Positions 1,494-62,980 of a DNA stretch of 64,000 bases are shown here, piece by piece (within the stretch, counting starts at the first letter, position 1; every line of letters starts with the position of its first letter). The stretch covers positions 38,316,001-38,380,000 of the forward strand of contig OZ024742.1 in NCBI GenBank assembly GCA_964016885.1, in the 5' to 3' direction. A program made the translations under genes and the position numbers. Under the pieces are notes generated by a model, which worked only from the letters and a program-made list of their open reading frames with translations, searched no databases and was not told where the DNA came from. This DNA is from Eledone cirrhosa (Eukaryota).

Positions 1494-2334
1494 TTAAGTT
1501 ATTATTTTAATAATTAAATAGTTTTAGTAAATCCTCAAAATTGTCCATAAATTAATTGAAATAGAATGTATTTCATTCGAAATATGATTAAGAAAGAGTT
1601 AAAGGTGTTTTCTCATGGTGTTGGAGACTCTGGGATTATATTATCTATGTACTTTCTTTTTATATAATAGTGGGGGTATGGTTTGAGGGAGATTTGGCTT
1701 CTATTTCTAGCACATTGAATGACTACATGGAAATAGTCTAGTTTGCCCATGGTGGGAAGCATGCCACTCTTTTGAATAGCAGTATTCTTGTAAAACTGGT
1801 ATTGTTGCTAGTGATGATTATTGTGGACTTAGTGACCTCATGCTGTTAGTTATAATGACAATAGTGTTGAACATTTTTAATTTTTTAGTCCAGGATTAGT
1901 ATAGTATATTTACCAGGAATACTAGGATTAGTATAGTATATTTACCAGGAATACTAGATAGATGAGCAATCATACAAAATGAGAAATTTGCATTTTGATA
2001 AAAATTAATATTTTTCATAAGAGAAACCCAATAGTTTATGTTAATTACTGAGACATGGAAGTGCACCTGAGCACTGTACACAATATTTCATTATTATATA
2101 AAAGATAAGAATGATACTTTTATAGCTAGGATAGAATCACACAAATGTTCAGTATATATATGTACAAATGATATATAGAATTAAATGTTTGAGTAATTTA
2201 GGAGAAATGTTCATTTACAGGGACAAATGCAAAGCTGGAACCCAGGACCTTGTGATCAGTGAATTTCTTATTGTAGCAACATGACTGAGATAGGAAATAC
2301 AGTGTGTATGGTTATGTGTGTACATTTTAAAGAG

Positions 2335-2338
<4 letters not shown>

Positions 2339-2398
<60 letters not shown>
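2339..2398. repeat. (TA)n microsatellite
   Basis: Pure TA run. Similar runs occur at ~2981-3031, 24527-24561, 48190-48240, 48322-48375, 50544-50587 and 62941-62974. Confidence 0.95.
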
Positions 2399-2401
<3 letters not shown>

Positions 2402-2402
<1 letters not shown>

Positions 2403-2979
2403 CGGGATGTTTGTTTACAAACAGACCGAGCATTATAATAAATGTTCAGTGAATCCATACGTACATATATATATGTGTGCATGTATGTATATATATATAT
2501 ACATACTACTGTACGTCTGTATACATATATGTATGTACGTATACATACTTATATTTAAGTAACAGCCGTACTAAGAGTGGGAAATGAAATTTCGTTTCAT
2601 TTTTTCCGTTTATCGTTTTCGGTGCACCCGGCCGATTAACCCACTCGATATGCAAATTGGGCTACTCAGCCGTTAATATGCATAAGGAAAGTATATACTT
2701 TCAGACGTTCAATCATCTGGCAGGAAGATATACGTTGCTGACGATAGCTAATAAGCTTGAAACTAGTACAGCGTTCCTTTGTCAGTGTTGAACAAACGAG
2801 CAACGATGGTTGCTAGACACTACGGCTTAACACGGGATGCTTGTTTACAAACACACCGAGCATTATAATAAATGTTCAGTGAATCCATACGTACATATAT
2901 ATATGTGTGCATGTATGTATATATATATATATACATATTACTGTACGTCTGTATACATATATGTATGTACGTATACATA

Positions 2980-2985
<6 letters not shown>
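2402..2985 (+). mobile_element. 430-bp-period partial tandem repeat carrying a hammerhead motif (Penelope pLTR-like or retrozyme-like unit)
   Basis: 2402-2555 is repeated almost exactly at 2832-2985 (both start ACGGGATG.TTGTTTACAAACA). The unique middle part is CpG-rich and holds the hammerhead. Confidence 0.6.
2722..2778 (+). ncRNA. Minimal type I hammerhead ribozyme motif
   Basis: Stem I ACGTTG(2732-37)/CAGCGT(2769-74), extended by AGGA/TCCT. Core CTGACGA (2738-44). Stem II AGCT-AATA-AGCT. GAAA (2759-62). Palindromic stem III ACTAGT. Cleavage triplet GUA ending at 2768. Confidence 0.75.
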
Positions 2986-3035
<50 letters not shown>

Positions 3036-4513
3036 AATATAAATTATCGAGAATCGTATTTCAGCTATTGGAAATTAGCGAAAAACAACTTCCGAGATGT
3101 GTGGCAAGCGCTCAATAGATTCTAACGAACCAGAGCTACAACATACGTTAAAAGGCCAAACACACTGAGACGATGGTTAAACCATTATCCGCACAGTCAT
3201 AGAAACGACCAAGTAATTCGGGTCAAACAAATAAAAAAATGATTGAAAAATTTACCTGGACCCCTGGATGGTTGGTGAAAATCCAACATTTGGGTTTCTG
3301 CGACTCCTAAATCAAGTACTGTCCGCTTAGAGAAATAATTGTTTCTACTTTAGGCACAAGGCCAGCAATTACCCAGTGCAGAGAAATAATGTTAAGCTTT
3401 TGGTAAGATGATTGAACAAGGAAGTCACTTTCTCAACAGGCTTTTAGTTCAAGTGCCAGGCCAAGGATTGACCGTTACCAATACCCACGTGGGGCTCGGC
3501 AAGGGAGGCAACCCTTATTTTTGGCGGATGAATTTAGTATGTGTAATATTGCAAAATTGCAAAATATCACAAAACGAATCAAGTTCTCAACAGAATGGTT
3601 TTAAAGTTAACAAAAGCTATTCATCAGTCAATAGAATCAACTAAAAAAATCAAGAAAATTAACTGGTCAATAGCTAGACTCTGGAGATTAATACAATTAT
3701 ATATATAAATATGTAAACACACGTAGCAGATTACTATGGTTAATTGCATATTCCTTTTCAAATATAGTGTATCTAGAACTATATTGTCCAACAAGAAAAA
3801 CCTCTACTTTTCACTTCCAAAGATCATTTTTATTTAAATGAAGTTCCCCACATACACCCACTCTGTAAAGTAGTTGATAGAAAGCGCATCTGACCATTAG
3901 AAACCTGTCGAACAAAGGGTTGGGAGGACAGTTCAGCTGTGTTAAAGACATGGCAACCTTCTTAAAACTGGTGCCAAGATAAAATGACCTGGTAGAGTGC
4001 AGGAACATATGTAAGATAGATGTAGGCACCTTGCCCTTCTAAGAAGTCAGTAGTTCTGCTTGAGTATTGACTTGCTCTGTAAAGACCCATTCAAACCTTG
4101 TTAGCAGGGAAAACTGGGCGTTAAATGAAGATGATGACTCCAGCTACAGTTACTCCCACCCCAGATTATTATACATTGAGATCCAATAGCATTTGTATAT
4201 AAATAAATAAATATACAAACACATGGCGTATTATGATCGTTGACGATAGTTTGGTCAGGATGATTGTGTGGTAGGAAGCAACTGGAAAGTCAGCTGCATA
4301 GAGTAGGATGTCGATTAAAGTAATGGTGCCAACAGCTGCTAGTTCTGGCTGTTCTTCTCTTCAGTTTGGAAGAGCTGCTATCATTAATATATGATATAGG
4401 AAGAATCAATAACTGACTGTGCTGCAGATTGGAGATGACAGTGAGAAGATAGGCTTTGTGGGTGGTGTGTCTGTGTACACACATTTTTGTGTGTATGGCT
4501 TTGGCTCTATGAT

Positions 4514-4672
4514 AATATTTCATTATTGTTATTATTATTATATCATGACTCATACACTGTTCATTTTCCTGACATTTGTACATTATTCTATGTACTATAC
4601 ATGCACCTTTGATGAGTTGTAGTGCACCTGAGCACTGTACACAATAATTTCATTATTATTATTATTATTATT
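4514..4672 (+). mobile_element. CR1 LINE 3'-end fragment with (ATT)n tail
   Basis: Matches the 3' UTR of the long CR1 (~47995-48120), including GAGTTGTAGTGCACCTGAGCACTGTACACAATA. Confidence 0.9.
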
Positions 4673-5992
4673 ATAACCGTTTCATTACAATATCCTAATG
4701 AAAGACATTGCCTATGATCTTCAGATAATTTAAATCATTATGGATTTGAAGGGGTTTAGTAATATAACTAACTTTATTCATTATTTATCTGGTATTGGAA
4801 CTCAATTTTGACATAATTATGATGTAAGGTTTTTAGATAAATATAAACACTAAACACTTTAAAATAGACAGATTTTATAGTAAAACCAGAGGTAGTTTCA
4901 GGCAATTTGATATCATGAGGGTTAACCATTTCATTACCGTATTTCTGACAAAAGACATTACCTATGATTTTCAAATAATTCTTTAAATAATCAAGAATTT
5001 GAAGGGAGTTAATAATATAACTTTCTCATTACTTATATTGTTTGAAGCCTAACTTAACAAAGGTTCTTACAAAGGTCTAACACACGTGGGCATGCCCACA
5101 AAGTCAGAAAACAGCACAGTTCCCATGACTTTCGGAAACATTTTTTCACGCTCAGAATTGCTGGAACAAACTACCTGCATCCTTTAAAACCTCCATGCTT
5201 CCCGAGATTCGCCAACACTACATCTAATGTTCCCCCTCCATACACATACACACATGTATATCATGACTCGTACACTATTCACTTCCCTGACATTTGTATA
5301 TTATTCTATGTACTATATATGCACCTTTGACGAGTTGTAGTGCACCTGAGCACTTTACACAATAATTTCATTATTATAATTATTATATAATTGTCATGGT
5401 AGGTTTGTAGAAAAATACAGATATTTGAAAATAAGCAGTTCTATATTATAGAACCTGGGGCAGTTTCAGGTGGTTTGGTAACAGAGGGTTTAATGAGTGT
5501 GCACCCATGCATGTGTGTATTGTTGAATGTCCCTTTACTTGGGACATAACACAATAACAGTATTAACCCATTTGCTCTGATATTTCTTATGAAAAATACT
5601 GCCAAAGATTATCAATTAACTTTTAAAATCAGAAATATAGAGGACTTTAGTCATAGAACTAACTTTCTCATTATTAGATTTAGAACGGTTTAAATTTAAA
5701 CATGAGCACTTTAACCCTTTAGCATTTACATTACTCTATATTTACTATTATATTTTCATGGTAAAAGCTTTACCCTACATAATTATCTCACATAATATCA
5801 AATCTATGAGATTTTGATATAATTTATTTTGAGAACATTACCTTAACGTCAGTATGAGGAACTGGGTAAAGCCAGTTTGAACAGAAAGAGGTGAGAGAAT
5901 TATGGCCAGTTTAAATGCTAAAGGGTTAAAACAAATAGGTTTTCATCATAGAACCAAGGCAATTTCAGACGGTTTGGAATAAAAAAAGTTAA
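4672..5992. mobile_element. Cluster of TTAA-flanked (piggyBac-type) MITEs with nested insertions
   Basis: TTAACC...GGTTAA termini. MITE A at 5711-5929 has TIRs TTAACCCTTTAGCATTTA/TAAATGCTAAAGGGTTAA. ~250-bp MITE B copies share a TTAA at 4922-4925. A CR1 3' fragment (5076-5387) is nested inside. Confidence 0.7.
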
Positions 5993-7654
5993 TGATACAT
6001 GTATCCATAAGCTCTTCTGTAGTTCAGATCAACTGGAAAGAGTTCCAATACACACACGCATGTACATTTGGAACTTTCCCTCCATGCAGCATTAAGTACA
6101 TCAGCCTTACCAGTCTGAGAAGGCTTGAAAAGACTATGGGCTGTACACAACTTTTTTGATAACCAACTCACTCAAAACTGCCCCAGTTTCTATAAAACAA
6201 AGCCATCCATTTAAAAGAGTTCCTATATAAATTAAAATCTTCCAATATAATTTCACGTCAGAACTTTTACTTAAGGCAATAAAATGATTAATGATTTTTA
6301 TTAAAAAAATGTTTTATTTATACAGAATATTTCATTTGAAATATGATCACAAAAGGCTTAGTAAATATATGGAGAGCATATATGTCTATATCTAATGATA
6401 TAGACATATTAAGCTTTGTCTATCATGTGAATGATCTTCCCATTCCTTCTATTTTTATTGCTTTTAGTGACCAAATCATGTGCACTTGGGAGGATGGTCT
6501 ACATGCATGTGTACTAAAAGCATCCTACACACACACCACACCACTCTGTGTGCATGTATTATTAGTGCTTTGTATAATTACCGGAAGTAAACAATGAATG
6601 GGAGAACCTCTATGTGGTTTTTCAACTTGGTAGAAATAGCAGTCAAATCACCCTCAAATCACACACACCCTATTACCTTACCAAAATAAGAATAAAGAGA
6701 CTAAAAATGGTGAATGTAGTCCTGAATATATAAAGAGAGGGAATGGTAATGGCTGGAATACCTTTGACCATAGGTCTATTGGATTGGGGCTCAATATATA
6801 TCTTAATGGAGTATTATTGATTAGCTATTAATTAACTCCAATTAGCTTAACTGCAAGACTTTTAGTGTATATCATGAAGTTGCATGCTTCAGTGGTTAGG
6901 ATGTTCGGTTCACAGTTCTAAGATTGTGAAGTCAATTCCTGACAGTGCATTGTTATTCTTGAGCAAGATATTTTGTTTCTCTCTATTCAGCTAGTAAAAA
7001 TATGTTGTACCTGTTATTCTGTGAGGCAGTCTTGTTACTCACTTGCACATTAATTTCATGTGTAAGCTGTTCTCACGATCAAATTAACTGGAACACTTGT
7101 CATCATATCAGACAGATGTCCAATACACACACACACACACACCTGTAACAGATATATCAGAGCTTCTGAAATTGGTGGAGGAGAGGGAAGTGATGAAGAA
7201 GAGATGTATCGTAGGTCAAGATATCCAATTATCCATAGATCAGCAGATACCTAGTTCAAATGCAAGAGCCAGGTGGTGTTGTCAAACTAGGCAGTGGAAT
7301 TAGGCTACTAGCCAAATGTAGGTGCAGCCCATCTAGTGGACTTCTGCACAATTTCCATTGTCCATGCTGGCATTGGTTTGATGGGTTGTCATGGTCCAAT
7401 ACTAGACTGATCACAGGGTCACATTTTGCTTATATGTTCTATTTTCAACATGGTTTCTACTGCTGGATGCCTCTCCTAGTGGCAAAAACTTTACAGAGTG
7501 TTTTGGGTGCATTATCATAGTACTAGCATAAAAAAAAGGGAATTTACATCACATTCTTATGCAAGTTTAACTAACCTCCTACAATGTTGCATCTCATATG
7601 AGATTTCTCAGTTGTCTTTTGATACGAGCTCCAGTTTTATCATGATATCATGAC

Positions 7655-7782
7655 ATGTATATCATGACTCATACACTATTCACTTCCCTGACATTTGTAT
7701 ATTATTCTATGTACTATACATGCACCTTTGACGAGTTGTAGTGTACCTGAGCACTGTACACAATAATTTCATTATTATTATT
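7655..7782 (+). mobile_element. CR1 3'-end fragment
   Basis: Same 3' UTR, stem-loop and ATT tail as the 48-kb CR1. Confidence 0.85.
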
Positions 7783-7796
7783 TTTGATAACATAAA

Positions 7797-7985
7797 AGGG
7801 CGGTGGATTGGCAGTATCGGTAGAGAGTCGGACGCCATGCTTTGACGCATAGAGTTACGGCCCTTGCCATTCTGAGTTCAAATCCCGCTGAGGTTAACTC
7901 TGCCTTTCATCCTTATGGAGTCGATAAAATAAAGTACCAGTAATACACTGGGTAATTGGTGGCCTTGTGCCAAAAGTAGAAATTA
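7797..7985 (+). mobile_element. tRNA-derived SINE with Meta/MESC-like core
   Basis: A-box-like TGGCAGTATCGG, B-box GAGTTCAAATCC, core GCCTTTCATCCT...GTCGATAAAATAAAGTACCAG. Similar copies at ~14510-14660 (+) and ~40790-40975 (-). The core-domain name is recalled, not searched. Confidence 0.7.
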
Positions 7986-8762
7986 TTTTTATGATAACAT
8001 CACACTATCATTTTACTGAGTGTATTGGTTGCATTTTATCATGGCAGCTACACTTGAGAGATTGTCATGTACTTGGCAAAACTGAAAAGTTCTCTCTACC
8101 TTATGTTGTCTTTGTTTGAAATTTCACTTCCATGCTATGGCAGAAGACACTTCCCCGAGGTTCCATGTGGTGAGATCAAACCTAAAATCACATGGTTGTG
8201 AAGCATACTTCTTAACCACGTAGTCATGCCAGCATTCATTGATTAGTCATGATACGCACCAATTAATTAAAGTAATGCAGGACCTTTAATGTAGTGCTTT
8301 TGTGCAATCACAATACTTTGCTTAAATCCTATATTTGCTTTAACTTGTTAATATATGATTCAATGGAATGAAAGATCATAAGTTGACTTCTAAGCCAACA
8401 ATGCATGGATTACCTACCCCTCCCCCTCTTCCCCACACTCACATACAAAGTCTCTAGTTAACTCTTGTATACAAATGTTAACAGCTGCATATGAAAACTG
8501 TTAACCTTGCTGTTGGTGCCGAGTCAATTATGTACATGCACACATACAGATATGTACATATGTGATGTACTGACACATGTAAATGCACACATACACGTAC
8601 AGGCATATACCCCCCCAACATAAAGAACATATTTGCAGGGACAGCTTTTCATATCTTGATATTCCTAACCTTCACACCTTAGTACTCTAAACTTTCCTTT
8701 TTTGGGACTCTCAAGATTTCCTCTATTTTTTATCTTTCTTTTTATTTATTTATGTGTGTATA

Positions 8763-9410
8763 AAATAATAATAATGAAATTATTGTGTACAGTGCTCAGG
8801 TGCACTACAACTCATCAAAGGTGCATGTATAGTACATAGAATAATGTACAAATGTCAGGAAAATGAACAGTGTATGAGTCATGATATAATAACAATAACA
8901 ATAATGAAATATTGTGTACAGTGCCCAGGTGCACCACAACTCATCAAAAAAGTGCATGTAGTGCTTTTGTGCAATCACAATACTTTGCTTAAATCCTATA
9001 TTTGCTTTAACTTGTTAATATATGATTCAATGGAATGAAAGATCATAAGTTGACTTCTAAGCCAACAATGCATGGATTACCTACCCCTCCTCCTCTTCCC
9101 CACACTTGCATACAAAGGGCAATGCACAAACATCAGTAAAATGAACAGTGCACGAGTCATGATACACACATGTGTGCATGTGTATGGAAGGGGTACATCA
9201 GGTGTAGTTTTGGCGTATTTCGGGAAGCATGAGTGTCTTAAAGGATGCAGTGTCTCGGCAGCTAACAATTGACGCAGGCAGTTTGTTCCATGCTTCAGCA
9301 ACTCTGAGCGTGAAAAAATGTCTGCGAAAGTCATGGGAGCTGTGCTGTTTTCTTATCTTGTAGGCATGTCCACGTGTGTTAGACACATGGAGATCAAAGA
9401 GGCACTCAGG
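8763..9410 (-). mobile_element. Two tandem CR1 3'-end fragments, one interrupted by a 162-bp locally copied insert
   Basis: The minus ORF fragment SNTRGHAYKIRKQHSSHDFRRHFFTLRVAEAWNKLP is the CR1 RT C-terminus. Two ATT tails end at ~8763 and ~8894. Confidence 0.9.
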
Positions 9411-9584
9411 TATATGTTATCCCTAGCTTATTCTTTCTCCAGGATTGTCTTTCATAAGTGATGCTCATCTCCATCACAGCTCTCTGGTTTGCTCTGTCCA
9501 TTGATTTCCACAACCCAACAATTTGTTTTCAACCACCCATCTTAGCAAGAAATATATTACATATTCTGACATGGTAAAATTGTT

Positions 9585-12500
9585 GGTAGTAGAGGTGGTG
9601 TTGTGATGTCAGTGGTAGTAGTGTCATTATTGTGATGTTGGTGGTAGTAGTGGTGTTGTGATGTTAGTGGTGGTGCTGTGATGTCTGGTAGTGATGGTGT
9701 TGTGAGATAATGGTAGTCGTGGTGTTGTAATGTCAGTGGTAGTAGTGGTATTGTAATGATGTCGGTGGTAACGGTGCTGGTGTTGTGAGATAGTGGTGGT
9801 GTTGTTGAGATGTTGGTGGTAGTGGTGGTGTTGTGATGTCAGTGGTAGTAGTGGTATTGTAATGATGTCAGTAGTAGTAGTGTTGTTGTGATGTTGGTGG
9901 TAGTGGTGGTACAGGTGGTGTTGTTGGGATGTTGGTGGTAGTGGGGGTGTTGTTGGGATGTAGGTGGTAGAGGTGGTGTTGTTGGGATGTCGGTGGTAGT
10001 GGTGGTGTTGTTGGAGTGTTGGTGGTAGTGGTGGTGTTGGATTTTGGTGGTAGTGGTGATATTGGTGGTAGTGGTGGTGTTGTTGGGATATTGGTGGTAG
10101 TGGTGGTAGAGGTGGTGTTGTTGGGATGTTGGTGGTAGTAGTGGTGGTGTTGTTGGGATGTTGGTGGTAGTGGTGGTGTTGTTGGGATGTAGGTGGTATT
10201 GGTGGTAGTGGTGGTGTTGTTGGGATGTTGGTGGTAGTGGTGGTGTTGTTGGGATGGTGTTCGTAGTGGTGGTGTTGTTGGGATGTTGCTGGTAGTGGTG
10301 GTGTTGTTGGGATGGTGGTGGTAGTGGTGGTAGTGGTGGTGTTGTTGGGATGGTGTTCGTAGTGGTGGTGTTGTTGGGATGTTGCTGGTAGTGGTGGTGT
10401 TGTTGGGTGGTGGTGGTAGAGGTGGTGTTGTTGGGATGTTGGTGGTAGTGGTGGTAGTGGTGGTGTTGTTGGGATGTTGCTGGTAGTGGTGGTGTTGTTG
10501 GGATGGTGGTGGTGTTGATGGTAGTGGTGGTAGTGGTGGTAGAGGTGGTGTTGTTGGGATGGTGGTGGTGTTGTTGGGATGTTGGTGGTAGTGGTGGTAG
10601 TGGTGGTGTTGTTGGGATGTTGGTGGTAGTGGTGGTAGTGGTGGTAGAGGTGGTGTTGTTGGGATGTTAGTGGTGGTGTTGGTGGGATGTTGGTGGTAGT
10701 GGAGGTGTTGTTAGTATGTTGGTGGTAGTGGTGGTGTTGTTGGGATGTTGGTGGTAGAGGTGGTAGTGGTGGTGTTGTTGGGATGTTGGTGGTAGTGGTG
10801 GTAGTGGTGGTAGAGGTGGTGTTGTTGGGATGTTAGTGGTGGTGTTGGTGGTAGTGGAGGTGTTGTTAGTATGTTGGTGGTAGTGGTGGTGTTGTTGGGA
10901 TGTTGGTGGTAGAGGTGGTAGTGGTGGTGTTGTTGGGATGTTGGTGGTAGTGGTGGTAGTGGTGGTGTTGTTGGGATGTTGGTGGTAGTGGTGGTGTTGT
11001 TGGGATGTTGGTGGTAGTGGTGGTAGTGGTGGTGTTGTTGGGATGTTGGTGGTAGTGGTGGTGTTGTTGGGATGTTGGTGGTAGTGGTGGTGTTGTTGGG
11101 ATGTTGGTGGTAGAGGTGGTAGTGGTGGTGTTGTTGGGATGTTGGTGGTAGTGGTGGTGTTGTTGGGATGTTGGTGGTAGTGGTGGTGTTGTTGGGATGT
11201 TGGTGGTAGAGGTGGTAGTGGTGGTGTTGTTGGGATGTTGGTGGTAGTGGTGGTGTTGTTGGGATGTTGGTGGTAGTGGTGGTGTTGTTGGGATGTTGGT
11301 GGTAGTGGTGGTGTTGTTGGGATGTTGGTGGTAGTGGGGGTGTTGTTGGGATGTTGGTGGTAGTAGTGGTGTTGTTGGGATGTTGGTGGTAGTGGTGGTG
11401 TTGTTGGGATGTTGGTGGTAGTGGTGGTGTTGTTGGGATGTTGGTGGTAGTGGTGGTAGTGGTGGTGTTGTTGGGATGTTGGTGGTAGTGGTGGTGTTGT
11501 TGGGATGTTGGTGGTAGTGGTGGTGTTGTTGGGATGTTGGTGGTAGAGGTGGTAGTGGTGGTGTTGTTGGGATGTTGGTGGTAGTGGTGGTGTTGTTGGG
11601 ATGTTGGTGGTAGTGGTGGTAGTGGTGGTGTTGTTGGGATGTTGGTGGTAGTGGTGGTGTTGTTGGGATGTTGGTGGTAGTGGTGGTGTTGTTGGGATGT
11701 TGGTGGTAGTGGTGGTGTTGTTGGGATGTTGGTGGTAGTGGTGGTAGTGGTGGTGTTGTTGGGATGTTGGTGGTAGTGGTGGTAGTGGTGGTGTTGTTGG
11801 TGGTAGTGGGGGTGTTGTTGGGATGTTGGTGGTAGTAGTGGTGTTGTTGGGATGTTGGTGGTAGTGGTGGTAGTGGTGGTGTTGTTGGGATGTTGGTGGT
11901 AGTAGTGGTAGTAGTGGTGTTGTTGGGATGTTGGTGGTAGTGGTGGTGTTGTTGGGATGTTGGTGGTAGTGGGGGTGTGGTTGGGATGTTGGTGGTAGTG
12001 GTGGTGTTGTTGGGATGTTGGTGGTAGTGGTGGTGTTGTTGGGATGTTGGTGGTAGTGGGGGTGTGGTTGGGATGTTGGTGGTAGTGGTGGTGTTGTTGG
12101 GATGTTGGTGGTAGTGGGGGTGTTGTTGGGATGTTGGTGGTAGTGGTGGTGTTGTTGGGATGTTGGTGGTAGTGGTGGTGTTGTTGGGATGTTGGTGGTA
12201 GTGGGGGTGTGGTTGGGATGTTGGTGGTAGTGGTGGTGTTGTTGGGATGTTGGTGGTAGTGGTGGTAGTGGTGGTGTTGTTGGGATGTTGGTGGTAGTGG
12301 GGGTGTGGTTGGGATGTTGGTGGTAGTGGTGGTGTTGTTGGGATGTTGGTGGTAGTGGGGGTGTTGTTGGGATGTTGGTGGTAGTAGTGGTGTTGTTGGG
12401 ATGTTGGTGGTAGTGGGGGTGTGGTTGGGATGTTGGTGGTAGTGGTGGTGTTGTTGGGATGTTGGTGGTAGTGGTGGTAGTGGTGGTGTTGTTGGGATGT

Positions 12501-12703
12501 TGGTGGTAGTGGGGGTGTGGTTGGGATGTTGGTGGTAGTGGTGGTGTTGTTGGGATGTTGGTGGTAGTGGTGGCAGTGGTGGTGTTGTTAGTATGTTGTT
12601 GGTATTTGTGGTAGTGGTAGTAGTGGTGGCAGTGGTGGTGTTGTTGGGTTGTTGGTGGTAGTGGTGGTGTAGGTGGTAGTGGTGGTGTTGGTGGTAGTGG
12701 TGT
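9585..12703. repeat. G/T-rich minisatellite, 29-bp unit GTTGGTGGTAGTGGTGGTGTTGTTGGGAT with 38-bp variants
   Basis: Direct inspection shows a ~3.1-kb array with almost no C on the plus strand, degenerate edges and a homogeneous core. Confidence 0.97.
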
Positions 12704-13359
12704 ATGTTTTCTGATCTATTTTCTGAATGAGAAATCTGAAAATAGAACTGGCATTTTCTTAAGGACGTCTTAGTTATACAGAAAAGTTATGTGTGTATAC
12801 ATGCATGTGTGTGCACATGCATCATCATCATTGTTTAATTATAGTAGAAGACAACTGCAATCCCCCTCCACCCATACAAATGCATGCACATTAAATATAT
12901 AGTGAGTATTGTGCTTACAAAATTACATCTCTGGTTGAATAAAGTCACAAGGTCCCTCATATACATATATTTTGTGTGTGTATATGTGTATCTGTATGTG
13001 CGTGTGTGTGTGTATAATATACACACACACACATATCCGTGTATGTGGATACAAACAGTTATACAAGCTTATGCATAAACTCACCCAAACACACTCACTG
13101 ATAGTACCCATAAGCACATCCATACACCCACACTCATACATAAGCATATACATACATACACACAAACATGTACACACACACACGCACAAAAGTGCATAAA
13201 AAATTTGGACACACGTGTATGCACACCCATAAACACATCCGCACACTCACACCCATACATATGCATACACATGGAGCTGAATACATAAAGTCAGCACTGC
13301 AGACTTTATGTATTCGGTTCCGTACATTGTTTATATATATATATATCTATCTAGGGTGG

Positions 13360-13829: not shown

Positions 13830-14500
13830 TTTTTATCATTGCTCCATTTCCTCTCTTTGCAATGTATACTTGTTGCCTAGCTTCTCTCCTAGCTTTTTAG
13901 TCATTTTCTCTGCTTCCCCCATTCTGCCATTCTTTCCATGCCTGTTTCTTGGCCTTAATTGTCTCATCCACTCTACTACTTCACTAAGTAATCCTTCTTT
14001 TCCCTGGAGCCCTGCTCCAGCCAAAGATCTCATCTGTGGCCTTCAGCAAATTATCCCTCAGGAACTCCTGCTGTTCCCCTATTTTATATCTGTATTTCTT
14101 CTTCCTTATTGTCAAAAGCATCAAGCAAGATATCTCTAAATTTGTTATTGGCTTAGGGTTCCCTCAACTTCCATGTCCTTCTGCATGTTGCCCTCTGTCT
14201 TCTAGTTTGTTTAGCCCTAACTTTAAAGTTGCTAACTACTAGGTTATGTTGAGAGGTGCATTGCTTACCAAGAAGGGACTTTGTGTTTACAACTATCACT
14301 ATATCACATCTTCTGGTGAGGATAAAATCTATTTGGCTTGTATGCTCACTTGATCTATAGAGCCACTAATGTCTCCTACCAAACTCAAAGTCTCCATAGA
14401 AACCATTATATTGTTCCCAACATCCCCATTAAAGACGCCTGCAATGATTATGAAACCAGCATTACTCATTAGGGAAGTAGTTTGCATTAGGGATTTGTAA
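13830..14500 (-). mobile_element. Older decayed RTE endonuclease/linker fragment
   Basis: Minus frame AKKQAWKEWQNGGSRE and IIIAGVFNGDVG are homologous to the 28-kb RTE. Confidence 0.75.
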
Positions 14501-17229
14501 CAGCTGTCATGGCAGTATCGGTAGAGGGTCGGACGCCATGCTTTGACGCATAGAGTTACGGCCCTTGCCATTCTGAGTTCATCCTTACGGGGTCGATAAA
14601 ATAAAGTACCAGTAATACACTGGGTAATTGCTGGCCTTGTGCTTAACGTAGAAACAATTAATTCATCTAACCGTCCTTATTGAGGTGTATAAACATATAT
14701 ATATATAATTATTATAGTTGTTCTATTAAGAACTAGTCTAAGTTTAATGACTCTGTCATTCACTCTATTTACCATAATTACCTTACTGACTACTGAATAC
14801 CCGCTCCACCCAGCCTGTTGTCTTTGCCTACCCAGAAAAATTTGTAGCATTATTTTCTGCCCATAAGGAGTCTAGTTGATGCTCCTTTTCACTTAGTCTC
14901 TTGTACACATCAACTTTTTTTTTGTCCTTTAGTAGAATAGATAGGTTTAGTTGTATGTGTGTATATATATATATGTATATTTTATGGGTGTTAGTGAGGA
15001 TTGTATGTGTGTGTGGATTTCAGTGTTCTTTGGATTAAAAGTTGAAATATATGGTATAATCCTTTTTTCTGGTTGAAAGAAATCTTTCAATCTATTTTTT
15101 ATGAGATAGTGATGCAGAAAGAGTGATTGGTTGAAAAGAGAGAGAGTTTATTTGAAGCTTTTTTTAAAATATAGATACAATATAGGGAGGGAGACACATA
15201 CAGTGTGTCAATATGTTCATACATATACATACATTTATGCAAATATTTTTTAATCATGAGCCTTATCATCACCACCAACATCATTTATCATTTTACTATG
15301 AGTAGACCACACATGATGTAACTAAAGATACATTGTTGCTTGGTATTAATGAAGCTCTATCAAATATGAGTGTGTCTATTATACACACACACACGCACAC
15401 ATATATTAATTTACAAAGTTAACTTATATATATATATATCCCACTTCTTTCTCATCTGACATTTTTTCTCTGTGAATAATTTACACCATAAACCAAGAAA
15501 CACTACCTCCACCCACTACTTCTACTCACTACCTCTACCCACTTCTTCTACCCTCTACCTCCACCCACTGCCAAATAACTCAGATCAATATTGCTGGTTT
15601 TATGAATGTCCATCACCACTACCACCTCTGTTTTCTCTTTAATACTTATATCAAGAGTATCAAACTTCTCATAACGACTCTTGCATGTATACATAGAAAC
15701 ATGCATACACACACTCACATTGCTGCACACACACACACAGACATCTACATGCCGCACACATATAGAATACATTAATTTTATAGCGCTGATAGCGCCTTCC
15801 ACTTTCTTGTCTCTGCCAATTTAGAACCATTAAAGCCATTGAAATATTATAATACTACATTGTACATTTAGTGTGTAATTGTTGTACAACTGCACCTTGT
15901 TTCATGAAACTGCATTAGCAAGACATTCTTGAAAAGTATAAAATAGCTCTATGACTGCATCACATTAATTATTAAAATCTTCTCCTAAATACTGCAAATT
16001 TTCACGATATGTCCACTAGTAAAAGTACTTTAAACATTTGAATTAAAAAACTCATTTTTAGATATGTTCTGCCATGGATGTTAAGAGTTTAATTCAAATG
16101 AGGAATTATACAATTATTTTCTAGCATTTGTAGTGGAACCATCGCTGGGCTAGATTTTCTTTGTTTGCGAAAATACCCCGATCAACAACCCAGACTAAAA
16201 TAGCCTTCATAGCACCTAGGGGTATATAGAGCACAGAACCTCTCACTTCTACCTCTCTCTCACTGGTTGTGTCAGTCCAATCACCAACTAAACTGGATAT
16301 TATTTTTGTTTTATTGTTAATAAAACATAAAAATTGCAAATAATGTCCACATTCTTCTGCAGACCACCAACATTTTCTCTTGGACGACTGGTTGGCAACT
16401 GCTGTTACAGAGAGTGTACTGGGGGCATTTCATACCACTACGTAGGTTGTTGTGCTATTGACACAACTGAAGATTCCTCTCAATGCTTTGGTTGGCAAGT
16501 TCTCTATGGCTGGGTGCTCTTCCTAACATCAACCACTTTACAGAATGTACTGGGCGCATTTTATCAGAGCATCACTACCCTATGGGGAAGGTGGAGGTGA
16601 CCATATTTAAATTAAAACCTTCCATCATAATTTTATGTAAAAACCTTTTATTAAGTCATAACCTAAATATGTTTAATAAAAGAAGTTATGTTATTAAATC
16701 CTTACAAATTCTCAAGTACTTTCAAAATAAATTGAAACAGAAGGGCAGTGTGTATGTGTTTGCATGTGTCCATGTGTGTGTTTGCACGTGTCGACGTGTG
16801 TATTTGCATGTGTCCATGTATGTGTTTGCATGTGTCCATGTATGTGTTTGCTGTGTATGTGTGTGATTCAAAATATGGTCTTGAAAGATTCAATCACCTA
16901 GCATCATTCATCTATTACTATCTTTGTCTCCTTTCCATTCACACACACACAAACAAACACACACGTCTTTATCTGTTTGCTTGTGGACGCATTAAGTGTG
17001 CTTTACTTAACAAAGAAGACTACTTGTTAATCAGAGTTTCTGAAAGTTTCATGGAGTTTTGCTGAGCCATAAATTGTTGTAGTGTTGTATTTGGATGTTG
17101 GGGAACAGTAGTTCCTCCATATTTCAGAGATAACATTTTAAATATTGTACTACTACCAGAGAACATCTAGGAGTGGATTAATCCAGTTTAGCTGATTAAT
17201 TATTAATCCCCAGGATTAGCCTGTCATTC

Positions 17230-24522: not shown

Positions 24523-24560
<38 letters not shown>
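23528..24560 (-). mobile_element. Non-autonomous Helitron-like element
   Basis: The minus strand ends in a GC hairpin (ACCC..GGGT, 23539-23557) followed by CTAG|T. The other end is in a TA run with the GTCTGTTTGTG...CCGATTTTTT motif typical of Lep1-like Helitrons. Confidence 0.6.
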
Positions 24561-24563
<3 letters not shown>

Positions 24564-25591: not shown

Positions 25592-28500
25592 ATCATCATC
25601 ATCATCATCATCATCATCGTTTAACGTCCATGTTCCACGCTTGCATGGGTTTGGCCGGGAGTTTTCCCACTTGAGGCAAGAGTGGTTGTCTTGCTCGCAT
25701 AGGACTGTCTGGCGGGTTTTCTACAGCTGGATGCCCTTCCTAACACCAACCACATTTACAGTGTGGGACTGGGAGGTTTTTACCGTGTTGCCTACACGGC
25801 CACATTACAGCGTGGACTGTGTGTTTTTTTGTCGTGACACCTACACGATCTCATTTGTTTCGGCCTGGATGTTGTGGCACCAACATAACTTTACATTAAA
25901 GGGGTGGGGTGGGGGGGGGGGGGGTTATTTTGTTAGAGATGCCTACTGACTGTAGTAGGTTTTACTTTGTATTTAGGTAAGGCGGGTCTTCTCTATTACT
26001 GAGTGCCGCCAAAGATCTCGGTCCAGTGACATTGTCTTGGAGAGGTGTAAGTGTGTGAGGTCAGAGTTTATCAGGTCGTCCCAGGTTTTTCTGGGTCTGC
26101 CTACTCCGTGGCTACCGTCTATCTTTATTGCCCTGCACTTTTTTATACAGCTGTCGTCTTTCATGCGCATCACGTGACCATACCAACGTAGCCTTCTCTC
26201 GAGTAAACAACATCTGATCCCTCTTATTTCTAATTTTTCCCTTAGTTCGTTTATGCTTTGCCGTTCGCGTAAAATTACTATTACACATCCAGCGGAGCAT
26301 GCAAGCTTCGTTCTTCTCTAGTCTGCGTATATCCTCTGCACACAATGCCCAGGTCTCACTGCCATGCAACATTGCTGTTCGTATGCAGGCATCATACAGC
26401 CTGCCTTTCATTTTTAGGGAGAACCTTTTAGCGGCTAATAGTGGTATAAGCTCTCTGAACTTTTTCCATCCAGTTCTGACTCTAGCTACTGTACTTTCAG
26501 AGCACCCTCCCCCACTGCTGATTTTGTCACCCAGGTAACGGAAGCTGTCCACTATTTCTATAGAACCCTCTGCACAATTGAAAGAGCTAGTATTTTGTGG
26601 GCACTTGCTGCTACTTATTGCACCAGAGCACCGGCCACATGTAAAATCTGTTCTTAGTTAGCTTACCTATGATCCCACTACATCTTTTATGCACCCATAC
26701 TTTGCATTTGGGACATAAAATGGAGTTTCTACCTACGCCTTTCCTACACACTGAGCATGGCCATTTTCCGGAAGGGACCGGCGCCTTATTTTCTTTCCTA
26801 CAAACTAGAACTTTAGTCTTAGCCAGGTTAATTTTAAGGCCTTTTGATTCTAGGCCGTGCTTCCATGTTTGGAATTTCTTCTCTAGCTCGGCCATTGATT
26901 CAGCTATGAGCGTTAGATCATCTGCGTATAGGAGTTCCCATGGGCAGCCGGTCTTGAACTCCACTGTTATAGCCTGAAGGGCAATAATAAATAGTAGGGG
27001 GCTAAGAACAGAGCCCTGATGAACACCAACTTTTACGCTAAACTCTTCACTATATTCGTTGTTAATTCTAACCTTGCTGACTGTTTCTTTATACATGGCT
27101 TGTATAGCTCTCACAACCCATTCATCAACACCTAGTTTTCTAAGAGCCCACCAGATAATGGAACGGGGGACTCTGTCGAAGGCTTTCTCCAAGTCGACAA
27201 AAGCTAAGTATAGGGGTTTACTTTTAGCTAGGTACTTCTCCTGTAGTTGTCGTACAATGGAAAGAGCGTCTGTGGTACTTTTGCCTGACACAAACCCGAA
27301 CTGCATTTCATCTAGATCAATTCTCTCTCTGATTAGTTGCGCTATTACTTTTTCCGTGACCTTCATGACCTGGTCGATTAATTTAATGCCTCTATAGTTA
27401 CTCCTATCTAGGGCGTCTCCTTTACCCTTGTAGCAGTTAATGATGATGTTGCTACGCCAGTCCTTCGGAACAACCCCATTCTGTATGACTTGGTTTACTA
27501 TCCGGATGACCATGGTGTGTCCCACCGTTCCAGAGGCTTTCAGCATCTCAGCAACTATTTCCGAAGGCCCAGCCGCCTTACCCGTCTTCATATCTTTGAT
27601 TGCCTTACTTATTATACTACCTTCGACTAACACTGCTGGTCCCTCTATTGGATTGATGTGGGGGAGACTCTTTCTCCCATTTATTCTCCTCATTTAGTAG
27701 CCTTTCGTAGTGACACTTCCAAGCTACCTTCTTATCAGCGTCAGTGATGGCAAGTACACCATCATCACTAAGTACACACTTCTCCCCGACAATATCACGG
27801 TTTTCCTTGACACATTGCCTAGCAATCCTGAACACCTCACGTTTTTGGTCCTCACGTTGTAGAACATGCTTGAACTTTCTTTCCTCTGCTTCCTTTCTTG
27901 CGAAGTACACTTGTCTCCTAGCTTCCCTCCTGGCCACTTGATAGTCTTCTCTACTTCCCCGATCCCGCATACTTTCCAAGCCTGCTTTTTGGCCTTAATT
28001 GACTCCTCCACCTTACTGTGCCACCACCATGTTACTCTCCTCCTGCCTACAGGCCTGCTGCCGCCATCAGCAGGTTTGCTTTCAGGAATTCCCACTGTTC
28101 CTCTATATTGTACGACTCTAATTGCTCTTCCTTACTGTCGAAAGCATCAAGTAATATGCTTTTAAATTTATTTCTGGTTGTGGGGTCCTTTAGCTTCCAT
28201 ATTTTCTCCTGAGGATAGTCCTCTTCTGCTGTCGAGTACGTCTCGTCCTGACTATGAGGTCGCTAATTATCAGTCTATGTTGGGAGGTGCATTCTTCATG
28301 GGGGAGGGATTTAGTGTTTACAACAGACACTCTGTCACGTCGTCTGGTAAGGATATAATCTACCTGGCTGGTATGTTCCCCTGATTTGTAGGTGATCAAG
28401 TGATTGTCTCGTTTTTTGAAGTTAGTATTACAGATAGTTAGGTTATTTGCATCACAGAATTCCAGGATTCTGGAGCCTTCCTCGTTTCTAGTACCAAACC

Positions 28501-29430
28501 CATAGCCTCCGTGGATTCCGTCATAGCCGTCACAATGTTGACCAACCTGGCCATTTAGGTCGCCAGCAATAATTATATAGTCACTGTCTGTTATTTGGGA
28601 GGTAGTGAGCATCAGTGTCTCATAGAATCTGTCTTTTATAGCGCCAGGCAGTCCGGATTGGGGCACGTATGCCGATATTACTGTCACATTAGAACAAGTC
28701 TTATTTTAATTATTCTGTCATTTACTCTTTTTACATCTATTATCTTATCCACCCATTTTTCTGCTAACATGATTCCTACCCCACCTATCCCATTGTCATT
28801 TCCCATCCAGAAAAGCTTATAGCAACGTTTTTTACCCACAATGAATCTAGCAAACCCGCCCCTCCACCTGGTCTCTTGGATACAGCAAACATCAACCTCC
28901 TTATGTTCAAGCATTTCTACAACCTCATTAGAGCGGCCTTTTAAGGTACCTACATTTATGGTACCAACTCTGAAGTTTGGGATTGTGTTTGGAGGATGGG
29001 GCGCAGAGATGGGGTTGGGGTTATGTTGGCCATCCGCGGCCGAAACAAAGAGGAGGGGGCCTTGCCCTTTCGTCCGGCAGCATGAGGTTAATTTGTCGTT
29101 ATCTTTGGCATTGTCATCGAGTGTCCAGATTCTTCAGACTCTCCAGAAATTCCTTAGTCCATCCATCATATCGAAAAGCAGCCAGAAGTGATAGCATAGG
29201 CCGTTGACTTGTGATTGGTCCAAATAATAAGGTGGAGAGTGGGGGCGGGGTATGGGGTAGTTAGCAAAGAGAAGATTATTTAGAACAAATGGGGTAGTTA
29301 GCGAGAGGTTTTAAATAAAATCTTCAAATTTTGGGGGGCATAATTGGAGAAGCATATAACAGTAATAATAAGCGAATAATGGGGTTTTAAAATACAAGAT
29401 TATTTAGAAACAACCAGACAGAATTATAGA
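25592..29430 (-). mobile_element. Near full-length RTE-clade LINE (single ORF: APE endonuclease, RT, PHD-like Cys finger, C-terminal domain), frameshifted
   Basis: EN motifs NVGTL, IQETRW, GDLN, VDYIL. RT motifs VDLEKAFD, GVHQGSVLSP, YADD. Finger CSVC..CPKC..HKRC. Stop at 25973 and (GAT)n tail at 25592-25618. The ORF is split by several frameshifts and stops. Confidence 0.97.
29214..29250 (-). promoter_or_regulatory. Putative internal Pol II promoter of the RTE (GC box and CCAAT box)
   Basis: GGGGGCGGGG at 29241-29250 and CCAAT at 29218-29214, about 45-80 nt upstream of the in-frame ATG at 29169. Confidence 0.35.
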
Positions 29431-29440
29431 TATAGTATAT

Positions 29441-31117
29441 TAATAATAATAATGAAATTATTGTGTACAGTGTTCAGGTGTACTACAACTCGTCAAAGGT
29501 GCATGTATAGTACATAGAATAATATACAAATGTCAGGGAAGTGAATAGTGTATGAGTCATGATATACATGTGTGTATGTGTATGGAGGGGGAATATTAGG
29601 TGTAGTGTTGGCGAATCTCAGGAAGCATGGAGGTTTTAAAGGATGCAGTGTCTCGACAGCTAACAACTGATGCAGGTAGTTTGTTCCATGCTTCAGCAAG
29701 TCTGAGCGTGAAAAAATGTTTACGAAAGTTATGGGAACTGTACTGTTTTCTGACTTTGTGGGCATGCCCACGTGTGTTAGACACATGGAAATCAAAAAGG
29801 TACTCAGGGTTGTTGTTGGCAAGATGGTTAACAATTTTGTAGGTGTTTACCAAGTCTGTTGCCAGGCGTCGGAGCTTCAATGTATCCATGCCCAGGGAAG
29901 CAAGGCGCTCAGAGTATGGTAGATACCTGATGGAGGGTATTCGCTTGGTTGCACGTCTCTGAACAGTTTCCAGGCGGTCAATGTTCTGAGCAAGATAGGG
30001 GTTTCAGACTGGTGATGCAAATTCTAAGTGTGGCCGCACCATAGCCATGTACAGCTTTAAATAGATAGCTAGAGAGCAGTTGACAAAGGTCTTGCTGAGT
30101 GATGCTAAGACACTCTCGGCCCTCTTGACAATTTTAGAGACGTGCTTCATCCAATGCAAATCGTTGCTGACCGTAATGCCCAGGTCACGTTCACAAGAAG
30201 ACTTCTTGATATTAGTGCTGTGGAGGGAGTATGTGGACGCTGGGTTTTTACTCCCAAAATGCATGGCCATGCACTTGTCCACAGCTAGCTTGAGTTGCCA
30301 GTCTGAGATCCATTGTTGCATTGTGTCCAAGTCAGACTGCAAGCAAGATCTATAGTGTTCAGGATCTGTCCTTTTTATCTCAAGGTACAGCTTGATGTCA
30401 TCTGCGTACTTCAGTACTGTGGCATTCTTTAAGTTGGCATCTATGTCATTAATATATGCCACAAACAAAAGGGACCAAGAACAGATCCCTGTGGTACACC
30501 AGATGACATCTCATATGGTGAGGAATGCTGTCCCAGAACCGTAACTACCTCTCTTCGACTGAGAATGAAGGACTTCAACCAGTTATAAAGATCATCCTTC
30601 ACACCCATTGCAGAGAGTTTTGCCATAAGTCTTTTGTGTGGCACAGAATTGAAAGCTTTCGCAAAGTCAAGGTAAACAACATCCACCCATGAGCCGCCAT
30701 CAGTGATCCGGGTGATGTCTTCAAGAAACTCGATAAGTTGATCACAGCAGCTGGAGTTGGGGATAAATCCAAATTGCGAGGGTCGGATAAGACTGTGAGA
30801 GTTCCAGAAGTTCCAAAGTGTTTCTCTGACACAGGATTCTATCAGTTTGGCATTGCAGCTAGTAAGACTGACTGGACGATAGTTCACAGGTGATGTGCAG
30901 TCGCCCTTTTTGAACAGAGGAATGACACTGGCAGTTTTCCACTGTTCTGGAGTAGCACTGTTGTTCAGACAGAATTGGAAGAAGCATGATAGCTGGTGCA
31001 GAAGGAAGTACCCACCACGTTTAAGAAGCAGGTACGTAACACCATCAAGACCAGGAGAGGCATGGTTGTGTTTATTTTTAAGGTGACGTCGCAGCATTGC
31101 AGGTGTAAATTCCATGG
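29441..31117 (-). mobile_element. 5'-truncated CR1 LINE (RT domain and 3' UTR)
   Basis: Motifs YLDFAKAFN, GVPQGSVLGP, YADD, VRPHLEFASPV. Closely matches 46453-48120. ATT tail ends at 29441. Confidence 0.96.
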
Positions 31118-33603
31118 TTGGCAGAAATATAGAAAAATAAAGATATAGAAGGGGGCTAACAGGTTGGTTAATGAAGAAGTTAGTCAGAGATAGTGGGCAA
31201 AAAAGATGATTGAGATCCACGAACTGGACAACTCAAAATAATTAAAATAAATGAAAATAGATTTAAATATATATTTCTTGACAAAAGAATATTTGAAGTT
31301 TTTCTTTCTTCTTTACTGGTAAGACATAGACTAAGGAACACTCGAGTTGGGGTTTGAATTTCATGTTATTTTTAAAACTATTTTTCTCTATTTTTAGAGA
31401 AATGGGAGAGTAATTAATTTGAAGTCAACTTAATACCCCTTTAACCCTTTAGCATTCACATTAATCTATATCTACTCTTGCAATTTCATGGTAATGGTTT
31501 TATTGCACATTATGTCGAATCTATGAGATTCTAATGTTATTTATTTTGAGAACAATACTTTAACATCAGTATGAGTGGCCAATTATGGTTGGTTTGAACA
31601 GAAAAAGGTGAGAGAATTCTGGCCAAATATGGGCAGTTTAAATGCTAAAGGATTAAACTATATTTCTGTCTTTAAAGAAAAGAGACACAGACACCACCTT
31701 ACAATTAGACAGGAAACACACATATCTGTTTTATTACCCTCAAACAATGTGATCCATTGCTATCAACTATATTCACCATACTGGATCTTCAGAAACATGC
31801 TACAGTGTATCCCATTCTCAAAAAGAGAAAATCCTATGACCCTCACAACCTGTATTACTGCACTTGCTAGTATCTCAACAGTAATGGAGACAGCCAAAAC
31901 CCTGATTCTCTCTCCTAAATGACCATAGATTCTGTAAAGCCAGATTTATTCGAGGTCTACTCTCCTATGTCACTCACCAATGGGTTTTTGCCCCCCCCCC
32001 CCCCCACTCTTTCACACACATGCACACTATCAACACTGGTGTGTTCCAGGGTTCAGTTATATCCCTCACACTCTTCATTCTCTACATCAATTACCCGCAA
32101 CACTCACTCTTACACATAACAATCTTTATGTAAAAATCTTCCATGACAATTTAATGTAAGAACTTCTAAGATTTGTTTCAATTACTCATAATAACGAGAA
32201 AGTTATTTTACTAAATCCTTCCAAAACGATTTTAAAATCATAGGCAGTATCTTTCATTAGAAATATGGTGACAAAAAGGTTAAAATATGTAACTTAAGCA
32301 TTGTCTGCTATATCTGTGCCATGGCCTTGAACTCTATATAAACTGGGACCTCAATCTCTCATCAACAAATAGTTTTTTCAATAAACACTCACTTCTGGGT
32401 GATGGGTAATGTACATAAAGGAAAGACACACACATTAGTGTGTATAAATGTGTAGATATACATTGCATACTATACCCCTCACATACACATGCTTTTATAT
32501 ACACACACGCAGTGTATATTAGTAACTTTTAACTCCAGACTTCTGTTAAATATGTTATTTTTATTCCATTGTCATTCAAGTTGCTAACTACTGAGAATCA
32601 CTTCCAGAATCTAACATATATAAAATTACATCAGTTTTAATTTGCATATTCTCGTTTCATGTTAAAGGTCGTTTAAAAGACTAATTATTCAAATATTCCC
32701 TGACTGACTAAACTATTTAATAAAATTCCTCTTCAGTTATGTCACTTGTAATAATGTTGGGATATTATAGCATTAACAAAAGCTATCCGACTCTTCAGGA
32801 ATTCATCTGAGATGGGGTAGTGGTTAGGGAAAAGATGGCATAGCATATATTTCAAAGTTGATTGTCTGCCATGTTCCCTCTAATTTTTCCCAACCACTGA
32901 TCAGAACATTTGATGCTTTGAGCAAAATCATTTTAAATTTAAAGCTATTAAGCAGCAAAATTTTAATGTGTATGGCACCAATACACTCTCCGTGCAGCCA
33001 CACACCCATGCAGCTTTGAGGGTTCGTTGATTGTCAATGTTGAATTTTCTCCCTAGGGTCCACATAAGGTGTGTACACACACATTAATGCATATTTTAAT
33101 TATATAGGGTCTACAACACATTCTTTATCCTTGAATCTTTATTTCAGGTCATCTATGCAGTTAAAGCCTTTCAAATCAGACTTTTTATTAGTTTGGTCTG
33201 GAGGTAGAGATTCTATTCATTGCCAGATGTTGTAAAGTGGTTGGTGATAGGAAAGGCACCCAGCTATAGAAAGCTTGCTAAACAAAAGGTTGGGAGGACT
33301 CTTCAGCTGTCAAAAAGTTGACTACCTTCCTAGTGCTGGTGTCACAATAAAATGCATTAGGTTGAAAGTGGGATTGTATGTAAGCTTTGTGCAGGCCTCT
33401 AACCCATCTGAGAGATCAGTCGCCCCACTTGAGTACTGACTTCGTTTGTAAAGACCTGTCCAATGCTTGCTAGCAAGGAATACAGATGTTAAATGATGAC
33501 GATGATTGGATATTTCTATATAAATTTTCCCAATGCTTTGTAAGTTATCTACTTTTTTACATTTCTACCTACAGGCTTAATATCTTCTTAAAGATGGCCA
33601 GCA

Positions 33604-48186: not shown

Positions 48187-48243
<57 letters not shown>

Positions 48244-48319: not shown

Positions 48320-48378
<59 letters not shown>

Positions 48379-50538: not shown

Positions 50539-50589
<51 letters not shown>

Positions 50590-62937: not shown

Positions 62938-62980
<43 letters not shown>

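Follow-up and report, generated by a model that had tools for sequence, protein, structure and literature searches.

A probable non-LTR retrozyme inserted in a (TA)n microsatellite of the cephalopod Eledone cirrhosa

Metazoan non-LTR retrozymes, represented in PMC7229834 by elements of 350-390 bp in mussel and by Rtz_331 and Rtz_353 in axolotl, are described there as non-coding sequences with a GC content below 50%, a type I hammerhead of canonical size and a self-paired circle in which the ribozyme is left free. The pLTRs of Penelope-like elements (PLEs) have been argued to be the origin of animal retrozymes (bioRxiv 10.64898/2026.07.22.740005). A truncated copy ahead of a full copy is the typical PLE layout, and the families of the Hydra clade are almost all inserted in (TA)n, one of them being listed from Octopus bimaculoides (PMC8557442). 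A PLE-associated hammerhead family, HHR2 of Drosophila willistoni, is also found in 450-bp tandem repeats (PMC4209133, Fig. S5). Plant LTR retrozymes are likewise non-autonomous and hammerhead-bearing, with a circular RNA intermediate. In the literature on octopus and cephalopod hammerhead ribozymes, retrozymes and circular RNA, most of it outside subscription journals, we found no report of a cephalopod retrozyme, and the word 'ribozyme' is absent from the available text of the repeat paper on O. vulgaris (PMC13282606).

In the window, that is, the whole 64-kb stretch of Eledone cirrhosa DNA analysed here, a non-coding, hammerhead-bearing sequence was found between two TA tracts, and we consider it to be probably a single, recent insertion of a non-LTR retrozyme (a non-autonomous PLE) in a cephalopod. 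The class is already known, so that the gain is mainly one of annotation. The locus is also a test case for two questions, namely which PLE clade is responsible for moving animal retrozymes and whether they are copied from a circle, and the clean junctions in a young copy, the defined target and the clade-like hammerhead make both testable by one genome search. The parts of the insertion are as follows.

2339..2399, no strand: left (AT)30 tract, target microsatellite (TRF, 100% match, 30.5 copies)
2398..2554, plus strand: copy 1 of the repeated segment, a 5'-truncated extra 0.36 unit; it shares its first 3 bases (TAA) with the left tract as microhomology
2402..2831, plus strand: one full 430-nt unit (as a circle); non-coding, CpG O/E 1.43, predicted hairpin chain
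2828..2986, plus strand: second copy (copy 2) of the repeat, forming the insertion's 3' end; its last 5 bases, TATAT, are common to the right tract
2982..3031, no strand: right (TA)25 tract, pure TA, target microsatellite (repeat search)

BLASTN comparison within the window aligned 2398-2554 with 2828-2986 at 95.7% identity over 162 columns (E 3.5e-71). The period is 430, or 432 past the indel, copy 2 carrying an extra 2-nt TA relative to copy 1, and the two copies differ by four substitutions (copy 1/copy 2: T/C at 2401/2831, T/C at 2410/2840, G/C at 2424/2854 and C/T at 2506/2938). Of the 157 repeated bases, about 55-59 have complex sequence, the other 100 or so being a degenerate run of TA/TG. 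The insertion thus comprises about 1.36 units of 430 bp arranged head to tail, as in retrozymes, with a truncated copy upstream of the full copy, as in PLEs; no inverted truncated copy adjoining the insertion was found. This agrees with the preliminary description, in which a 154-bp direct repeat with a 430-bp period (about 1.36 units) was noticed between (TA)n tracts: the 154 bp are the core without the junction microhomologies, and the bounding tracts are the (AT)30.5 at 2339-2399 and the TA at 2982-3031.

The unit was also correctly described as non-coding and CpG-rich. Stops break all six frames across 2398-2990, and no Pfam domain was found in the scanned frames of the unit. With 430 bp, a GC content of 0.37 and no open frame, it matches the few hundred bp and GC below 50% of non-LTR retrozymes. 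Its 21 CpG per 430 bp (O/E 1.43) are the highest count of the window, where the median is 3 (O/E 0.26) and the LINE copies have O/E of 0.44-0.58; only 4 of the 1272 sliding windows over the 64 kb reach 21 CpG, all of them on the element. At the left edge the CpG O/E jumps from 0.06, in the 840 bp on the left, to 1.43, as is expected of an insertion boundary. To the right of the TA tract, 3036-3323 is CpG-rich (O/E 1.12), single-copy, unstructured and non-coding (folding z -0.3 for the flank 3031-3330), and may represent either another young element inserted in this tract or regulatory sequence.

The ribozyme motif lies in the unique part of the unit, and its elements are as follows.

2732-2774, plus strand: type I hammerhead (descriptor, folding, Rfam HH9 alignment)
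2732-37/2769-74, plus strand: helix I, 6 bp, with an extension to about 2707-2793
2738-44, plus strand: core CUGACGA
U2745·U2758, plus strand: U·U pair at the base of helix II
2746-49/2754-57, plus strand: helix II, 4 bp
2759-62, plus strand: GAAA
2762-67, plus strand: helix III, palindromic, 6 nt
After 2768, plus strand: predicted cleavage, at the GUA triplet

A generic type I descriptor, composed after the motif had been noticed, has this single match in the 64 kb on both strands. It matched 1 of 20000 dinucleotide-shuffled units and 6 of 100 shuffled windows (0 of 100 at the observed stem lengths). The Rfam model HH9 aligns over its full length with the core matched and with the 6-nt loop 2 and the helix I internal loop in register; the score is 20.4 bits against a cut-off of 52, and the E of 0.0034 is flattering, the 101-nt stretch having been picked afterwards. 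Rfam at gathering score gave 0 matches in the whole window. At E up to 10 on 2300-4400, no hammerhead was among the 65 matches, which were mostly miRNA models on TA-rich hairpins and were set aside as compositional. Looser core matches from a plain motif scan (four on the plus and six on the minus strand) failed the stem test. The 49- and 61-nt hammerhead cores showed no extra stability relative to shuffles (z about +0.3). The exact pattern was found at 0 loci in bacterial and archaeal genomes, so that there is no sign of a prokaryotic origin.

A palindromic helix III is a mark of ribozymes that work as dimers (PMC4209133), and the predicted energy of a double hammerhead here is -20.4 kcal/mol, against -3.6 (helix III closed) or -14.4 (helix III open) for two monomers. 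The U·U at this position of helix II is documented and better tolerated than other mismatches (PMC3088659). In the axolotl, helix III of HHR_Amex1 (there a single bp with a palindromic tetraloop) and the U·U of HHR_Amex2 resemble those found here. Monomers of the axolotl motifs with one or other weakening feature cleaved at 6% and 22% per hour, their dimers being far more active (PMC7229834); unlike in these motifs, both features are combined in one hammerhead in our element. The hammerhead here appears to be dimer-dependent through its palindromic helix III. To be weighed against the retrozyme reading, only 1 of 9 Xenopus retrozyme dimers cleaved in one test (bioRxiv 10.64898/2026.07.22.740005).

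The preliminary description placed the unit around the hammerhead and suggested that it may belong to a family producing RNAs of about 430 nt. The motif itself was confirmed, but it is single and located outside the duplicated 157 bp. One dimer-type hammerhead outside the repeat leaves this copy unable to release a 430-nt monomer, and for this copy the proposed RNA production is not supported. Active copies have been defined as having two or more units in succession, every unit with a complete hammerhead, and the single hammerhead places our copy instead in the monomer class of the same work (bioRxiv 10.64898/2026.07.22.740005). It is probably a dead end.

Compared with the metazoan retrozymes in PMC7229834, the element is similar in being non-coding, in its GC content below 50%, in its canonical-size type I hammerhead and in its predicted self-paired circle with the ribozyme free. 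It differs in its length of 430 nt, slightly above the reported 170-400 nt, in having just 1.36 units with one hammerhead, and in its insertion in (TA)n, a target absent from the main text of that paper. With the Hydra-clade PLEs in PMC8557442, a clade present in Octopus, it shares the (TA)n target, the U·U, the 4-bp helix II and a helix III that starts with ACU and ends with AGU. Unlike in these PLEs, there is no RT/GIY-YIG ORF, helix III is 3 nt shorter, and the hammerhead is farther from the 3' end and outside the repeat. Hydra-1_Obim has a hammerhead of another type, and its 3' UTR, compared by eye, has no convincing likeness to the unit (PMC8557442). A D. willistoni row in Fig. S3 of PMC4209133, tentatively linked to HHR2, has both the U·U and a palindromic helix III; the HHR2 arrays are long, with up to 85 units, and their helix II is longer than ours. 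Plant LTR retrozymes, similar in their class traits, carry type III hammerheads in both LTRs and have 4-bp target duplications, unlike the single type I hammerhead outside the repeat found here.

No helper was found beside the element. Among 256 frames scanned with Pfam, none had a GIY-YIG domain and the 5 RVT_1 matches were all in LINE-type frames; these were 239 of 374 filtered frames (at least 55 aa) plus 17 chosen ones, a set that small remnants could escape. The frame 4172-4360 had no Pfam or PDB match. An autonomous PLE would have an ORF with RT and GIY-YIG joined to the repeat and a hammerhead within its pLTR. No such ORF was found, and the hammerhead at 2732-2774 is outside the repeat. 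The search for adjoining PLE RT/GIY-YIG ORFs proposed in the preliminary description thus gave none in the scanned frames of the window. Of its two candidates, a retrozyme or a Penelope pLTR, the first is supported, since the hammerhead, the lack of coding sequence, the partial tandem and the (TA)n site all suit a non-LTR retrozyme or non-autonomous PLE, and the pLTR of a recognisable autonomous Penelope is not. At the sequence level, the element has the features of a non-LTR retrozyme, and is neither an autonomous PLE nor a plant-type LTR retrozyme.

Folding of the unit gave the following further features.

2457..2542, again at 2887-2974, plus strand: long TA/TG-rich self-complementary hairpin, 25+10 bp (folding, alignment)
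2546..2561, plus strand: 6-bp hairpin with a UAUU loop, matching the right end of the insertion; putative priming site (pair probability 0.96, loop unpaired 1.0)
2564..2827, plus strand: unique domain, closed as a whole by the 7-bp helix 2564-2570/2821-2827 (pair probability 0.96)
2650..2657, plus strand: octamer motif, near chance level, inside a predicted hairpin arm

The predicted circular fold of 2402-2831 has an energy of -137.5 kcal/mol (z -8.8, 100 shuffles), and its z is owed largely to the TA-rich hairpin. The unique part by itself reaches z -3.9, with 1 of 75 other windows lower, and the minus strand folds nearly as well (z -3.4). The most structured background window was 63201-63476, in an early intron of the UQCRC2 gene (z -4.7, 12 shuffles). 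Helices I and II are already part of the predicted lowest-energy circle, and forcing the active ribozyme in the circular monomer gave -136.1 kcal/mol, a cost of 1.4. The predicted self-paired circle is therefore compatible with an active ribozyme, as was reported for metazoan retrozyme circles (PMC7229834). The predicted fold gives moderate support for the element and does not fix its strand.

The octamer was noticed correctly at 2650-2657, but is not significant alone: counting both strands, the window has 10, or about 6.5% per 430 bp. An octamer is presumably involved in the promoter of newt satellite 2. That satellite, a hammerhead repeat, has its snRNA-type promoter inside the repeat (cited in PMC2220036), and in our unit the one octamer is the sole promoter hint. 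A T6 run at 2600 would argue against Pol III read-through of the unit. ARAGORN found no tRNA genes in the window. A sigma-70 promoter scan was set aside as irrelevant for a eukaryote.

A second copy of the unit was found in the 64-kb window neither by BLASTN nor by Smith-Waterman, whose best scores (33 and 29) were no better than those of shuffled queries, and a 24-nt likeness at 4214-4237 was rejected as chance on the same grounds. The unit is thus single within 64 kb, and we infer its membership in a multicopy family. Other (TA)n tracts are located at 24528-24561, 48190-48241, 48322-48375, 50544-50587 and 62941-62980, with no copy of the unit beside any of them.

Three other explanations of the locus were weighed. 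The two copies could be two 5'-truncated 3' ends of an autonomous PLE, a 3' UTR of 430 nt behind a 157-nt fragment, with no independent 430-nt RNA. We consider this unlikely. Most PLE insertions are indeed 5'-truncated partial tandems (PMC8557442; bioRxiv 10.64898/2026.07.22.740005), recent PLE activity with 31 families is described in O. vulgaris (PMC13282606), and the Hydra clade fits by its TA target and hammerhead type. However, no coding remnant is present in the 430 nt, and the cut site, at about 35-125 nt from the 3' end in six Hydra consensus sequences judged by eye, is 218 nt from it here. In addition, the predicted helix 2564-2570/2821-2827 and the hairpin across the junction of copy 1 and the unique part suggest a native junction and no chance join.

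It is very unlikely, in our view, that the locus is the relic of a longer tandem array or dimer, formed by one insertion or by unequal crossover and later reduced to 1.36 units by deletions that joined TA-like sequence inside it to the flanking tracts. The TA-like microhomologies at both ends are consistent with such deletions, a heterogeneous array would suit the 4 copy differences, and unequal crossover has been proposed for local amplification of retrozymes (bioRxiv 10.64898/2026.07.22.740005), but extra events are required and the junction microhomologies are just 3 and 5 nt despite the longer TA runs within the unit. Least probable is a local duplication of single-copy DNA, by slippage or template switching, in which the hammerhead-like motif would be due to chance. 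In its favour, the unit is single-copy in the window, the Rfam score is under the gathering cut-off and the CpG-rich zone runs on to about 3320, past the right tract. Against it, the motif arose in only 1 of 20000 unit shuffles, the order repeat-unique-repeat is unlike a product of slippage between flanking tracts, and the substitutions speak against an assembly duplication. Simple slippage between the TA tracts, the alternative named in the preliminary description, does not account for the repeat, since no TA run is present where the unique part meets copy 2 (2820-2835).

Returning to the retrozyme insertion, the junctions suggest how it may have formed. At the right junction, the end of copy 2 and the TA tract share TATAT, and the equivalent internal position, 2550-2554, corresponds to the top and loop of the 6-bp hairpin 2546-2561. 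At the left junction, the shared TAA is located in a single-stranded linker of the predicted fold. About a third of the unit positions are predicted to be unpaired, so that the location of both junctions in loops is weak evidence alone. The 3' end of the insertion is 218 nt downstream of an intact predicted cut site, which suggests that the template was not a cleaved linear monomer, but a circle or an uncut multimer.

Following published models (PMC4209133; PMC7229834), tandem master copies elsewhere would be transcribed, and two hammerheads would pair via the palindromic helix III and excise a 430-nt monomer, which a host ligase would circularise. A PLE GIY-YIG endonuclease would nick (TA)n, and the freed end would anneal to the exposed UAUAU at hairpin 2546-2561 and prime reverse transcription. 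The RT would then complete one round of the circle, across the sealed ribozyme site, continue for 157 nt into another, and join the left tract at TAA. Copying of more than a unit from a circle is part of the published model (PMC4209133).

The likeliest helper is a TA-targeting PLE, and the chance that it belongs to the Hydra clade is about even, the remainder falling to Neptune or another clade. The (TA)n target is a trait of Hydra-clade PLEs and also of Neptune and Naiad. Neptune likewise favours microsatellites, and Naiads target (TA)n, lack hammerheads of the canonical type and have, by published accounts, long been inactive in cephalopods. By eye, the U·U at the base of helix II is present in 14 of the 25 Hydra-clade families (File S2 of PMC8557442) and in 2 of the 56 general PLE hammerheads (Fig. 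S3 of PMC4209133). When three short motifs were sought in the supplement of PMC8557442, the one informative match was the Hydra-2_aJap core. Against a link to Hydra, a single species accounts for 11 of the 14 U·U families, helix III of the U·U families is 3 nt longer than here, the listed O. bimaculoides Hydra hammerhead is without U·U, and the U·U is present in axolotl and D. willistoni motifs too.

The copies diverge at 4 of 157 sites, or 2.5% (95% range 0.7-6.5%), a divergence that may stem either from age or from a tandem template that was itself heterogeneous. By the scale given for Octopus (PMC13282606), and assuming that the copies were identical at insertion, the insertion would be about 1-9 million years old; with a mixed template it would be younger. 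A more far-reaching proposal, which we regard as tentative and rather doubtful, is that the element belongs to an undescribed and still active cephalopod retrozyme family with abundant 430-nt circular RNAs, which borrows a Hydra-clade PLE and steers its own insertion by annealing of the UAUAU loop, exposed at a distance from the ribozyme cut site, to nicked (TA)n, all dispersed copies ending at that loop. If this were true, a 3' end fixed at 218 nt beyond the intact cut site would provide evidence, directly from genomes, of priming on a circular template, which for animal retrozymes is proposed, not shown, in the literature covered.

The element sits amid LINE fragments, 33 kb beyond the 3' end of the UQCRC2 gene (cytochrome bc1 core protein 2, M16 peptidase), which occupies 36032-63876 on the minus strand with about 13 exons mapped by tblastn. 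Its product shares about 80% identity with those of its two database relatives, from Octopus vulgaris and O. bimaculoides, with most exons at 70-95%, which points to an octopod-like cephalopod host, probably neither of these two species. Two introns of this gene contain repeats, namely a 48-bp minisatellite of about 8 copies at 55948-56429 and a decayed transposase fragment at 37804-38223 on the plus strand (Pfam Transposase_1, E 2.6e-11), which we take to be of the mariner type.

Two LINE copies, at 1-1492 and 26112-29133 on the minus strand, are 95.4% identical over 1494 bp and are both frameshifted. In both, the RT is followed by a PHD/C1-like Cys motif, and we assume that they are RTE-like; an older fragment is located at 13857-14360. 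A second LINE family, presumably CR1/L2-like, is present at 29596-31232 (minus strand) and 44610-47652 (plus strand) and as many short 3'-end fragments, for example at 4539-4668, 5075-5387, 7653-7785 and 8760-8913. Beside LINE fragments, a 162-bp direct repeat with 98% identity was found at 8289-8450 and 8956-9117, 667 bp apart.

Among the other repeats of the window, a dispersed repeat of about 190 bp at 7803-7989, 14510-14673, 40785-40972 and 3324-3380 is possibly a SINE, with no tRNA detected by ARAGORN. The 3.1-kb minisatellite at 9580-12708 is GT-rich, with a GC skew near 1.0 and spurious long Pro/Thr/His frames on its minus strand. A perfect 32-bp tandem duplication is located at 1892-1957, 440 bp to the left of the element.
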